A stretch of DNA of 64,000 bases from Pirellulales bacterium (GCA_040901675.1 JBBDYJ010000014.1:39305-103304); one strand, 5' to 3'. Shown: positions 49,374 through 62,116, counted from the stretch's first letter. The notes: generated by a model not told the origin, from the sequence alone. Made by a program: numbers and translations.

Positions 49374-52118
49374 ATGGCAAAAGCGGAAAAGTACGTCTAC
49401 TCGTTCGGACCAGGCGGCACCGATGGCGATGCAGGCATGCGCGACTTGCTGGGAGGCAAAGGCGCGAACCTGGCCGAAATGACCAAAATCGGGCTGCCCG
49501 TGCCGGCCGGGTTCACCATCGGCACCAACGTCTGCACCTATTACTATGCCCACGATCGTGGCTATCCGCCCGAATTGAAGGACGCGGTTGCCGCCGCCAT
49601 GGCCAAAGTCGAACAGGAGATGGGGGCCAAGTTCGGCTCGACCAGCAACCCGCTCCTGGTCTCCTGCCGCTCGGGCGCCCGCGACTCCATGCCCGGCATG
49701 ATGGACACCGTGCTCAACATCGGCCTCAACGACGAAACGGTCAAAGCGCTCGCCCAACAGTCGGGCAACGAGCGGTTCGCCTGGGACAGCTATCGCCGCT
49801 TCGTGCAGATGTACGGCGACGTCGTCCTGGACATGAAGCCCAAAACCAAGGAAGACCACGATCCCTTCGAGGAACTGCTGGCGGCCAAGAAGCGCAAGGC
49901 CGGCGTGACCTACGATCACGAGCTTACGGCCGCACAACTCAAGGAGCTCGTGGCGGAATTCAAGCAGGCCATCAAGCAAGGTACCGGAAAGGACTTTCCC
50001 GCCGACCCCATGAGCCAGGTCTGGGGCGCCATCGGCGCCGTCTTCGGAAGCTGGATGAACGACCGCGCCGTCGTCTACCGCCGCACCTACGGCATCCCGC
50101 ACGAGTGGGGCACCGCCGTCAACGTGCAGGCCATGGTCTTCGGCAACCTGGGCGACGACTGCGCCACCGGAGTCGCCCTCACCCGCAACGTCGCCCTGGG
50201 CACTCCCGGCCTCAACGGCGATTACCTGATCAATGCCCAGGGAGAGGACGTCGTGGCAGGCATCCGCACCCCCAAGCGGATCGAGGAAACGCTGGAAAAA
50301 GACATGCCGGCGGCCTACAAGCAACTGGCCGAGATCGGCCGCAAGCTGGAAAAGCACTACAAAGAGGTGCAGGACCTGGAGTTCACCGTGCAGCGGGGCA
50401 AGGTCTGGATGCTGCAGACCCGCAACGCCAAGCGGACCGGGTTCGCCGCAGTGCGGATCGCCGTCGACCTGGCGAACGAAGGCTTGATCACCAAGGAGGA
50501 GGCCCTGCAGGCCCGCCGTATCCCGGCCGACGACCTGAACCAACTGCTGCAACCGATCTACGACCCGAAATCGAAGCAGGCGGCGCTCAAGGAAGGCCGC
50601 TTGCTGGCCAAGGGGATCAATGCGGGCCCCGGGGCCGCGTCAGGCATCATCTGTTTCCACGCATCAGACGCCGAGGCGCAGTGGCTGAAGAACAACCACG
50701 TCGAGTTGATCCTGGTCCGCCGCGAAACCAGCCCGGAGGATCTGCGGGGCATGAAGATCGCCAAGGGAATCCTGACGGCGTTCGGGGGTGCCAGCTCGCA
50801 CGCGGCCCTGGTCAGCCGGCAGATGGGCAAGGCCTGCATCGTGGGCTGCGGCGAACTGGAGATCGACTATCGGGCGGGCACGGTCACCGTCGGCGACAAG
50901 GTGCTGCGCGAGGGGGACCTGATCTCCATCGACGGTTTCACGGGCGAAGTGTTCGCCGGCAAAGTCGAGGAGCGGCCCAGCGAAATCCTGCAGGTGCTGA
51001 TCACCAAGACGCTCAAGCCCGAAGAGTCGGAAACGTATTCCCGCTACAGCCAGCTCATGTCGTGGGTCGACGAGCATCGCCGGCTCAAGGTGCGGACCAA
51101 TGCCGACGAGCCCAAGCAGGCGCTGGAAGCGATCGCCTTCGGCGCCGAGGGGATCGGGCTGTGCCGCACGGAGCACATGTTCTTCGGGCACATCGACGAG
51201 TTCCGCGAAATGATCCTGGCCACCGAGGTCATCGGGCGCGAGGCGGCACTAGTCAAGCTGCTGCCGTTCCAGCGAGAGGACTTCGAAGGGCTGTTCCGGG
51301 CGATGCGAGGGCGTCCGGTGACGATCCGCCTGCTCGATCCGCCGCTGCACGAGTTCCTGCCGCACCATACGGCGGAACAGGTCGAGCTGGCCGGCAAGAT
51401 TGGGGTCCCGGCCGAGATCATCGCCCGGCGCGTCCAGGAATTGCACGAGTTCAATCCGATGCTGGGCCACCGGGGCTGCCGGCTGGGCATCGTCTACCCG
51501 GAGATCACCCGCATGCAGGCCCGCGCCATCTTCGAGGCGGCCGCGAACGTCCAGCGCGAGGGGATCGACGTGCTGCCCGAGGTGATGATCCCGCTGGTCG
51601 GCTTCAGCACCGAATTCAGGGACCAGGAGAAGGTGGTCCGCGAGACGGCCGACCAGGTCTTCGCCGAGAAGGGGATCCGGGTCGAGTATCTGGTGGGGAC
51701 GATGGTCGAGGTTCCGCGGGCTGCCGTGCGGGCGGAGGAAATCGCCCAGCGTGCCGAGTTTTTCAGCTTCGGCACGAACGACCTGACCCAGACCACGCTG
51801 GGGATGAGCCGCGACGACTACGCCGGCTACATCAACTATTACCGCGAGCACGACATCGTGCCGCACGACCCCTTCCAGACGATCGACCGCGACGGCGTGG
51901 GCAGCCTGATGCAGTTGGCCGTTGAAGGCGGGCGCAAGGCGCGGCCCAAGCTGAAGATCGGCATCTGCGGCGAGCATGGGGGCGATCCGGCCAGCGTCAT
52001 GTTCTGCCACGAATTGGGGCTGGATTACGTGAGTTGCTCGCCCTTCCGCGTGCCGATCGCACGGCTGGCCGCCGCCCAGGCGGCGGTGGCTGAAAAGGCG
52101 GCGGGCCGGAGCAAGTAG
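49374..52118 (+). CDS. ppdK: Pyruvate, phosphate dikinase
   Basis: 914 aa; PEP-utilising enzyme motifs ([10 protein letters not shown].., ..[22 protein letters not shown].., ..[18 protein letters not shown]). Confidence 0.9.
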
Positions 52119-52254
52119 CCGGCGAGCGCCAGAATTCGAGCGAGTCGTAGCCGGATTCGCCAGAATTCGGGCCGTTGCGCGCTAAACCAGAACTCTGGCG
52201 AGTTCTGCTACCGACAAGCGAAGGCGGCCAGAACTCTGGCGGGTCCTGCTACGG
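52116..52254. repeat. Cluster of 4 palindromic GAATTC-type repeat units (GTAGCCGGATTCGCCAGAATTC / GAACTCTGGCGAGTTC..GCTAC)
   Basis: Same family recurs at 56289-56358, 59435-59550 and 61959-62116. Confidence 0.75.
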
Positions 52255-52272
52255 GCGAGCTGGGAGAAACCG

Positions 52273-53139
52273 TTATCCCGCGGCGGCGCGGAAGCCGGAG
52301 TCGCCGGCCCCGTCGTCGGGCAGCTTAATCGTGGCCGGAGGCGGCAACCGCCGCTCGGGCATAATTCCCCGGCTGCCGCCGGCGAAAAACTCGGTGTACT
52401 TTGCAGCGGGTCCGCTCGGGAATTCGACTCGAAGCCGCTCCAGAATCGCCTGCCATTTCAATCCGCTGCGGTAGATCAGCCGGTACGCCGCCTTGAGCTG
52501 TCCAATATCGTCGTTCGAAAAACCGTTGCGCCGCAGGCCGACCTTGTTCAGCCCCACGACGTAGCCGCTGTAGCCATCGATGGTGACGAACGGCGGCACG
52601 TCCTTCAGCACGCAAGCCAGGCCGCCCACCATCGCCAGCCCGCCCACCCGGCAGAACTGGTGCACCGCAACGCCCCCGGATATAAAAGCCCGGTCCTCGA
52701 CCGTGACGTGCCCGGCCAGCATGGAATTGTTGGCGAGAATCGTATGGCTTCCCACCCGGCAATCATGTGCGATATGGACCCCGACCATCAGAAAGTTGTT
52801 GTCACCCACTACGGTGGAATGTCCCTCCGAGAGTGCCCGATGGATCGTGACATGTTCTCGGATGGTGTTGTGCACGCCGATCTGGACGATCCCAACGCGC
52901 TCGGTCATCCGCAGATGCTGCGGCAGGCCGCCGATGACCGCGCCTTCATAGACGTGGTTGTCGCTTCCCAGCGTGACGCCTTGCTTGACGACCGCGTGGC
53001 TTTCGATCACGGTGCGGTCGCCCACGACGGCCGCCGGCTCGATGATCGCGAAAGCCCCCACGACCACGTCCTGGCCGATTTGGGCCGTGGGATGGACCAC
53101 GGCTAGCGGGTGAATTTTCACCGGCAATTGACCTCTCAT
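52273..53139 (-). CDS. lpxA: Acyl-ACP--UDP-N-acetylglucosamine O-acyltransferase
   Basis: Left-handed beta-helix hexapeptide repeats; ..IHPLAVVHPTAQIG..; LpxA-type C-terminal helical domain. Confidence 0.8.
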   Translation of the reverse strand: MRGQLPVKIHPLAVVHPTAQIGQDVVVGAFAIIEPAAVVGDRTVIESHAVVKQGVTLGSDNHVYEGAVIGGLPQHLRMTERVGIVQIGVHNTIREHVTIHRALSEGHSTVVGDNNFLMVGVHIAHDCRVGSHTILANNSMLAGHVTVEDRAFISGGVAVHQFCRVGGLAMVGGLACVLKDVPPFVTIDGYSGYVVGLNKVGLRRNGFSNDDIGQLKAAYRLIYRSGLKWQAILERLRVEFPSGPAAKYTEFFAGGSRGIMPERRLPPPATIKLPDDGAGDSGFRAAAG

Positions 53140-53531
53140 GGCACGGCCCGCTACCAAGGCGGCAAACGTTCCTCGCGCGGGCATGGCGAGGCGGGCCGCC
53201 GGCTGGCCAAAGAGATGCGCCGTCGGCCCAATTTACGTATCGGTAAGCCGGGGCGAGGCAGTTCAACCCGCCCGACCGATCCAGCCCGCTTTTTTGGGGA
53301 TTTCGGACTACAGTTTCGGCTTCCTCCTTCTGCCGGGCACTGCTTCTCGGCAGCCGGCGACGCCGGCTGCCTCCAAGCAGTGGCACAGGAGTCAGGAATC
53401 GGAGGTCTCCGAGAGCAGCGCCGCAGCCTCTCAGCCAGCCGCCCTATTCCTCCTTCCTCCTTCCTCCTTCTGCCTTCTACCTTCGGAGGGTACACTAGCG
53501 CAAGCACAACCTGACGGAGACTCACCTCGCC

Positions 53532-61644: not shown

Positions 61645-61694
61645 GAAAGCTCCTTTCTTTCCCGCGAGGAAACGAGCAACTATCTTTGGCTGTT

Positions 61695-61870
61695 CCAGAC
61701 CAGATATCCTGGCTCGGGGTCAACCTACCGCCACCCTTCCCGGCCCGTCGGACCAGTGGCACGTGGCGTTCGTCACCCTTACAGTCGCGGGGCGGCGGGA
61801 GCTTTGCACTCCGCTTCCCTGGAATCCGGAACGTTTGTTTGAAGCGGCCTGGAGCAGCTCCCGGCGCTTC
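61695..61870 (-). promoter_or_regulatory. Cobalamin (AdoCbl) riboswitch in the 5' UTR of the TonB-dependent receptor gene
   Basis: Minus strand reads ..AGGGAAGCGGAGUGCAAAGCUCCCGCC..CCCCGCGACUGUAAGGG..GCCACUGGUCC..CGGGAAGGG..GAGCCAGGAUAUCUGGUC, matching the B12-box (GCCACUG) and core consensus. Confidence 0.6.
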
Positions 61871-61958
61871 CCCCGTTGGTGAATTCGGTTTATGCCGGTC
61901 ATGCACGTTACTCAATTTGCGACGGCTTTGGCGAAAGTCAGCTCCGGTCGCCCAGCAT

Positions 61959-62116
61959 GTAGCAGGACTCGCCAGAGTTCTGGCGGCGTAGCACGAGGGC
62001 CCGAGGGGCCTGAATTCTGGCGAATTCAGCTACGGGCAGTCGCCATCACGCCGGGCGTGATGAGCTGCCTCGCGCGGAGCGTGAGGGCTACTGATTCTGG
62101 CGAATTCAGCTACACC
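61959..62116. repeat. GAATTC-type palindromic repeat cluster (3 units)
   Basis: GTAGCAGGACTCGCCAGAGTTCTGGCGGCGTAGCAC; CTGAATTCTGGCGAATTCAGCTAC (x2). Confidence 0.75.

Follow-up and report, generated by a model that had tools for sequence, protein, structure and literature searches.

GTAG-tagged palindromes clustered in a Pirellulales genome are very probably REP elements of a family widespread in Planctomycetota

We analysed a family of short palindromic repeats in a 64,000-nt stretch of DNA from a Pirellulales bacterium (hereafter the window; coordinates are positions in it unless another locus is named). The repeats are very probably repetitive extragenic palindromic (REP) elements, arranged in inverted doublets resembling bacterial interspersed mosaic elements (BIMEs) and REPINs, and members of a family with a GTAG tag that is found widely across Planctomycetota. 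The feature is an already known REP family, together with a known type of partner enzyme, a REP-associated tyrosine transposase (RAYT). The original prediction had left it open whether the repeats were REP-like or regulator-binding; the first half of that proposal is supported by the GTAG tag, a covarying hairpin, extragenic location, inverted doublets and copies that flank RAYT genes in relatives.

Searching the window for GTAGCMGGAYTCGCCAGARTTC with up to three mismatches returned 10 matches, all at 52147–62033, compared to 0.00 expected from 100 dinucleotide-preserving shuffles, and the 12-nt core TCGCCAGARTTC with up to one mismatch returned 11, all at 52126–62023. A pattern specifying structure only (GTAGC-N7-GCCA-N7-G) matched eight times, compared to 0.08 expected. 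Direct reading of the four intergenic regions concerned added four degenerate units to the pattern matches, for a total of 14 (10 clean and 4 degenerate) at 52115–62113. Neither the core nor the structure pattern found a unit in the first 52 kb, in agreement with the earlier claim that about 12 units are confined to the last 12 kb. That claim also held that they alternate in orientation with two to four units per intergenic region; the units do mostly alternate across four regions, but the range is two to five. A generic scan of the window (G[TG][AG]G followed by a hairpin) found no second repeat family.

Each unit is 24 nt long and consists of GTAG, an 8-nt arm (C-N-G-R-A-Y-T-C), a GCCA loop and the complementary arm. 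This is an imperfect palindrome in the 20- to 40-nt range of REP elements, with an 8-bp stem, a 4-nt loop and, as is also characteristic of REPs, a conserved unpaired GTAG at the 5' foot of the hairpin. Four stem subtypes occur in the window (CCGGATTC/GAATTCGG, CTGAACTC/GAGTTCAG, CAGAACTC/GAGTTCTG and CTGAATTC/GAATTCAG). The tag is GTAG in nine of the ten clean window units and CTAG in the remaining one; in a set of 271 units, 268 have the GTAG tag and 225 the GCCA loop.

The stem covaries. Among 152 units from other genomes, chosen by a pattern that left stem position 2 and its partner free, the pair 6–23 was Watson–Crick in 98.7% of cases compared to 37% expected from the marginals (TA 74, CG 48, GC 25, AT 3), and the pair 10–19 in 98.7% compared to 51%; the covarying stem positions are 2 and 6. 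Across 56 distinct units, a set pre-filtered for at least six of eight pairs, 96.0% of the structure-pair cells were paired compared to 83.3% after shuffling, and double-sided changes numbered 62 compared to 17.1 (0 of 500 shuffles as high), a signal that collapses once the partners are slid against each other. Stem position 4 is A-T or G.T (G.T in 84 of 271 units) and A.C in a single unit, and selection on the hairpin therefore acts on the GTAG-bearing strand. Together, the compensatory changes and the strand-specific wobble favour a single-strand hairpin over a double-stranded operator. The predicted folding of the units into hairpins is thus confirmed, in the form CNGAAYTC/GARTTCNG and with covariation. 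When 51900–62400 was scanned against Rfam at E values up to 10, the repeats matched no credible family, and a cobalamin riboswitch alone exceeded its gathering threshold.

Most window units are paired in convergent doublets whose GTAG tags are outermost and whose starts lie 43–53 nt apart (Table 1). The 77-nt doublet at 56282–56358 is 87% reverse-complementary to 59440–59516, linker included, and its linker recurs at 59525–59567; it was therefore whole doublets, and not single hairpins, that were copied. Inverted pairs of this kind, separated by a short linker and copied together, are what distinguishes BIMEs and REPINs. As single-stranded DNA, the four window doublets could fold into one long hairpin or two short ones (z-scores of -5.0, -3.6, -1.8 and -3.6). 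In other loci, 93 of 124 adjacent pairs were head-to-head (HH, GTAG outside), 19 tail-to-tail and 12 head-to-tail, with a median gap of 15 nt. HH doublets joined different stem subtypes in 70 of 88 cases; a strict hetero-dimer rule is ruled out by the 18 homotypic doublets (10.4 expected). One Pirellulales metagenome-assembled genome (MAG) contains a tandem array of at least seven alternating units with a period of ~118 nt, which resembles a large BIME cluster (locus L113, 73–450).

In sequence, the window units match the GTAG-21 REP family of Rhodopirellula baltica, to which they would accordingly be assigned. GTAG-tagged REPs, with several families in R. baltica, were catalogued by Di Nocera et al. 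2013 (PMC3733652), and that paper gives SRIRQNS, VTGFARIR and RILANPA as peptides encoded by intragenic GTAG-21 elements. SRIRQNS corresponds to AGC CGG ATT CGC CAG AAT TC, VTGFARIR to GTA ACC GGA TTC GCC AGA ATT CG and RILANPA to ATT CTG GCG AAT CCG GCT; the three back-translated peptides equal the window motif AGCCGGATTCGCCAGAATTC and its complement, representing both strands. According to the same paper, two of the intragenic open reading frames (ORFs), RB11752 and RB11765, neighbour RB11751 (rba11751), which is aligned there as a RAYT.

This RAYT is associated with the same repeats in relatives. A phmmer search with rba11751 identified a near-identical ORF in a Rhodopirellula MAG (L070; E = 1e-114), where a REP doublet at 3161–3231 overlaps the stop codon and REP-derived sequence lies upstream. 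The RB11751 type has 660 homologues, which the Joint Genome Institute (JGI) names 'REP element-mobilizing transposase RayT'; the best 120 of the 660 are ~57–65% identical, mostly ~190 aa long, and derive from Rhodopirellula, Roseimaritima, Planctomycetaceae, Gemmataceae and Pirellulales. The type retains an HUH motif (DHIH) and a Y motif (DYIARNP). Five units precede the gene and four follow it in a Gemmataceae MAG (L120, L121), and six precede and three follow it in a Planctomycetaceae MAG (L122), all of the form GTAG C.GAA.TC G(C/T)(C/A)A GA.TTC.G. The REPtron arrangement, a RAYT gene bracketed by its repeats, is thus present in three lineages of relatives (Rhodopirellula L070, Gemmataceae L120/L121 and Planctomycetaceae L122) and not in the window.

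The E. coli enzyme TnpA-REP binds single-stranded REP DNA, requires GTAG and acts on BIMEs (PMC3333891). By analogy, the source genome would carry elsewhere a single-copy HUH/Y1 RAYT of the RB11751 type, itself flanked by REPs, and this enzyme would mobilise the copies in the window. It would probably bind the single-stranded GTAG hairpin, could cut either at the inverted partner or within the linker, and might promote strand exchange, dispersing or amplifying doublets into intergenic DNA, mostly just 3' of stop codons.

The window does contain a different Y1/HUH-like gene (46780–47982, minus strand, 400 aa), and the units might instead be derivatives mobilised by it in the manner of miniature inverted-repeat transposable elements. 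The gene lies 4 kb upstream of the first cluster, has HLH (HUH-type) and YVDLNPIRAGL tyrosine motifs and weakly matches REP_Tyr_transpos (26.3 bits against a cut-off of 80, E = 5.5e-6), and its homologues are named 'RayT' by JGI. However, no GTAG unit occurs within 4 kb of it, the nearest being 4.1 kb away, past ppdK; Pfam returned no match; its 5749 homologues, mostly on ~1.5-kb contigs and including non-planctomycete hosts such as Bryobacteraceae, are distributed unlike the REP family; and the RAYT that GTAG REPs actually flank is of another type. With its score below the cut-offs and no flanking REPs, we rejected the gene as a RAYT, regard it as belonging to an unrelated, TIRYT-type mobile family and consider its involvement very improbable. 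Two truncated copies of its 5' part adjoin it (47991–48332 and 48308–48766), and a ~440-nt duplicate is 100% identical (47541–47982 and 48325–48766); partial duplication in tandem or an artefact of assembly could explain this.

The REP family extends far beyond the window. An exact scan with GTAGCNGRAYYCGCCAGARTTC, using one genome per species, found the 22-mer pattern in at least 118 stretches from ~70 Planctomycetota assemblies, beside unrelated genes. The assemblies are labelled Pirellulaceae/Pirellulales, Planctomycetaceae, Gemmataceae/Gemmatales, Mariniblastus, Aeoliella, Aureliella, Anatilimnocola and Rhodopirellula, and a few short contigs with the 22-mer were binned as Kuenenia or Alcaligenaceae. 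Outside the repeats, none of the 118 loci is homologous to the window, and tblastn with the window genes found no gene neighbourhood common to them. Among 2.9 million viral contigs, only three stretches carried the motif. The description of the repeats as a regional family is therefore not sustained.

These data also bear on whether the palindromes are operators of a local transcription factor co-regulating ppdK, lpxA, nifS/DUF3467, DUF1559 and a B12-dependent TonB receptor. The grouping of four clusters in 10 kb, with no cluster in the remaining 52 kb, would fit such a regulon, as would the one cluster upstream of the TonB receptor's riboswitch and promoter region. We find it scarcely credible nonetheless, and the suggestion of regulator binding did not hold up: the same 22-mer stands beside unrelated genes in ~70 assemblies, three of the four window clusters are at gene 3' ends, the compensatory stem changes preserve pairing and not sequence, the G.T wobble is strand-specific, orthologous ppdK loci in relatives lack units, and units flank RAYT genes.

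The local history of the ppdK locus agrees with mobility. Its nearest ppdK sequences assign the window to uncultured Pirellulales. With the closest relative by ppdK, the Pirellulales MAG LejiaB_66_9 (GCA_040877345.1; 98% amino acid identity; 95.3% DNA identity over 2427 nt), homology runs as far as 52122 in the window and breaks off exactly at the first unit and the ppdK stop. At the same position the contig of that MAG (L128) has a REP variant, GTAG CCGGATTC-(10-nt loop)-GAATTCGG, and it ends 140 nt past the break, inside a REP cluster (L128 2423–2563). At least three more contigs of this MAG (L010, L040 and L098) bear REPs and otherwise have nothing in common with the window. In relatives at 85–88% amino acid identity, the ppdK loci contain no unit in 23 kb, and synteny differs. 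The homology break at the first unit and the unit-free orthologous loci mark the units as turnover-prone insertions and not as regulatory sites under conservation.

Table 1. Palindromic units, doublets and flanking genes at 49359–62987 of the window.
Feature	Coordinates	Strand	Sequence or basis	Remarks
ppdK	49359–52118	+	Pfam
Degenerate unit	52115–52138	+	GTAGCCGGCGAGCGCCAGAATTCG	5' arm disrupted; TAG at 52116–52118 is the ppdK stop codon
Unit	52147–52170	+	GTAG CCGGATTC GCCA GAATTCGG	G.T wobble at stem position 4; left half of HH doublet
Unit	52188–52211	-	GTAG CAGAACTC GCCA GAGTTCTG	Perfect 8-bp stem; right half of doublet 52147–52211
Unit	52229–52252	-	GTAG CAGGACCC GCCA GAGTTCTG	G.T wobble and one mismatch; 21 nt from lpxA stop (52273)
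lpxA	52273–53184	-	Pfam
Ala_racemase_N/D-Ser-dehydratase gene	53857–54966	-	Pfam
Aminotran_5 (nifS-like)	55041–56195	-	Pfam
Doublet	56289–56356			Between Aminotran_5 start and DUF3467 stop
Unit	56289–56312	+	GTAG CTGAACTC GCCA GAGTTCAG	Left half of doublet 56289–56356
Unit	56333–56356	-	GTAG CCGAATTC GCCA GAATTCG(C)	Right half of doublet 56289–56356
DUF3467 gene	56385–56744	-	Pfam
DUF1559 gene	58239–59354	-	Pfam
Degenerate remnant	59419–59439	-	GAATTTATTCCGTTCGGCTAC (plus-strand reading)	Read from sequence
Unit	59442–59465	+	GTAG CCGGATCC GCCA GAATTCGG	Left half of doublet 59442–59509
Unit	59486–59509	-	GTAG CTGAACTC GCCA GAGTTCAG	Right half of doublet 59442–59509
Unit with CTAG tag	59524–59547	+	CTAG CCGGATTC GCCA GAATTCGC	Spacer repeats that of doublet 56313–56355 (43 nt, 86%)
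Truncated remnant	59566–59581	-	..CCCTGGCTAC (plus-strand reading)	Tag gives TonB receptor TAG stop (59578–59580)
TonB-dependent receptor	59578–61644	-	Pfam
Unit	61959–61982	+	GTAG CAGGACTC GCCA GAGTTCTG	Left half of doublet 61959–62033; 93 nt upstream of cobalamin riboswitch (61682–61866, minus strand)
Unit	62010–62033	-	GTAG CTGAATTC GCCA GAATTCAG	Right half of doublet 61959–62033
Degenerate unit	62090–62113	-	GTAG CTGAATTC GCCA GAATCAGT	1-nt deletion in 3' arm
Gene right of cluster 4	62190–62987	+	Codon-position GC

Pfam searches confirmed the flanking genes that had been named for the clusters (ppdK, lpxA, nifS/DUF3467, DUF1559 and the TonB receptor; Table 1). The clusters occupy one convergent, two tandem and one divergent intergenic region. 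In other loci, based on rough gene calls, 64 clusters lie in tandem, 26 in convergent and 11 in divergent regions, at a median of ~50 nt from a stop codon. This extragenic location, biased to gene 3' ends in tandem and convergent regions (on the same rough calls outside the window), is typical of REPs. The leader of the TonB receptor gene contains the cobalamin riboswitch (RF00174, minus strand, 85.8 bits, E = 1.6e-20), so the encoded receptor is probably a B12 transporter of the BtuB type. Clusters are found on both sides of this gene.

The position of the units raises the question of a host RNA function, in which the hairpins would be kept chiefly for stabilising upstream mRNA from its 3' end, attenuating read-through or, where they overlap a stop codon, modulating translation termination, and RAYT would be irrelevant to their present distribution. 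Most clusters are downstream of genes at the short distance from the stop given above, the GTAG tag provides the TAG stop codon of both ppdK and the TonB receptor, the stem tolerates G.T wobble, and many REPs are argued by Di Nocera et al. (PMC3733652) to act as RNA elements. We nevertheless judge this explanation unlikely. Both orientations occur, so that half of the transcribed copies would have C.A instead of G.U, and the wobble tracks the GTAG strand and not the direction of transcription. A terminator scan of 52000–62300 returned nine terminator-like sites, none coincident with a unit, and no unit has a T tail; intrinsic (Rho-independent) terminators are thereby ruled out as the identity of the units. 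One cluster occupies a promoter region between divergent genes, and the REPtron architecture is left unaccounted for. As a secondary effect, an RNA role is compatible with the units being REPs, and, with two stop codons overlapped by the tag, the units may affect mRNA 3' ends or translation termination.

A permutation over 35 intergenic regions gave P ~0.01 for four occupied regions within 10 kb or less, a value to be read with a rough gene map and a window selected for this very property. We regard the clustering as real but modest, and see in it no evidence for a local system; TnpA-REP systems have been described to amplify BIMEs locally (PMC3333891).

Several observations weigh against the interpretation of the units as REPs with an RB11751-type partner. 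The RAYT scores below curated cut-offs (Pfam Y1_Tnp, 17.4 compared to 23; NCBIfam REP_Tyr_transpos, 43.4 compared to 80). Searches with phmmer and with a hidden Markov model built from 120 RAYTs found it in L070 only, not in the 64-kb window or the other 117 of the 118 loci, as is to be expected if the gene is rare or present as a single copy; phmmer with the RayT of E. coli matched no ORF in the window or the 118 loci. The recommended check for an associated RAYT thus yielded a partner flanked by the same REPs in relatives, and none in the window itself. In Roseimaritima multifibrata (L123, 9863–10671) and 'Phycisphaera sp. RhM' (L124, 9443–10758), orthologous RAYTs are flanked by a different REP (GTAG TGGAGCTT GTTA AAGCTCC., in degenerate form GTAG TGG(A/C)(G/T)CTT GTTA AAG..CC) whose architecture is the same (8-bp stem, 4-nt loop) and whose sequence is another. 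The RAYT–REP pairing is therefore not universal in the protein family, which is the usual REP–RAYT co-variation, here a co-divergence within one protein family. Furthermore, the cluster at 61959–62113, in a divergent promoter region, is atypical for REPs; the local clustering is left unexplained; and the match to GTAG-21 was drawn from back-translated peptides.

Other repeats occur in the same part of the window. A purine-rich motif, GAAGGCAGAAGG(AGGAA..), is present in three intergenic regions (53466–53484, minus strand; 56196–56207 and 56867–56905, plus strand), with seven matches in the window at up to one mismatch compared to 0.34 expected. Between the DUF3467 gene and the next ORF is a heptanucleotide microsatellite, (ACCAATG), of ~5 copies (56941–56978). 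A 58-nt direct repeat (57842–57899 and 57911–57968, 83% identical) lies inside or near ORFs with no Pfam match (56984–57484 and 57483–58145), and related pieces of 23–28 nt are found at 56249, 61345 and 63323.

The 14 window units, and hundreds like them in planctomycetes, are best annotated as REP/BIME elements and not as regulatory sites. GTAG REPs break assemblies (the relative's contig ends within a cluster), give rise to spurious ORFs and can provide genes with stop codons. It is mildly notable that the same GTAG hairpin and a ~60% identical RAYT are common to very distant Planctomycetia, which makes them a convenient natural system for studying REP–RAYT persistence and co-evolution, with the change to a GTTA-loop REP in Roseimaritima as one case. 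The near-invariance of the 22-nt hairpin and the identity of the RAYT across at least three Planctomycetia orders (Pirellulales, Planctomycetales and Gemmatales) could also be read as an ancient, vertically inherited and domesticated system, which we think rather improbable. If true, it would imply host-level selection on the hairpin, for example through mRNA 3' ends, stop-codon context or nucleoid structure, and the pile-up around the TonB receptor gene with its B12 riboswitch could reflect function rather than chance.

Among known systems, GTAG-21 of R. baltica SH1 (BMC Genomics 14:522) shares the AGCCGGATTCGCCAGAATTC sequence, the GTAG tag, an organisation in single and paired units and a repeat-flanked RAYT gene (RB11751 type; the window itself contains no RAYT). 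It differs in its host, the window deriving from an uncultured Pirellulales and not from Rhodopirellula, and in that the window has the extra stem subtypes CTGAACTC and CAGAACTC. The REP/BIME elements of E. coli with TnpA-REP (RayT/YafM; Ton-Hoang 2012, PMC3333891) likewise combine a 5' GTAG with a hairpin, form inverted pairs with short linkers, usually of two REP subtypes (the y and z types), and are extragenic with a 3' bias, and the E. coli REPtron likewise brackets a single Y1/HUH gene with the same repeats. In contrast, the planctomycete stem is shorter (8 bp) and near perfect, closes a 4-nt GCCA loop and has a G.T wobble rather than a 2-nt mismatch as its sole regular imperfection, and the planctomycete RAYT is very divergent from E. 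coli RayT, with 'AYD' where other RAYTs have 'WQ'. The E. coli REP and REPtron are reportedly also linked to work by Nunvar (2010) and Messing (2012). The REPINs of Pseudomonas fluorescens, said to have been described by Bertels and Rainey in 2011, are similarly inverted REP doublets, able to form a single long hairpin and copied together; here, however, most HH doublets mix stem subtypes (70 of 88), so the long hairpin would be imperfect and two short hairpins would compete with it.

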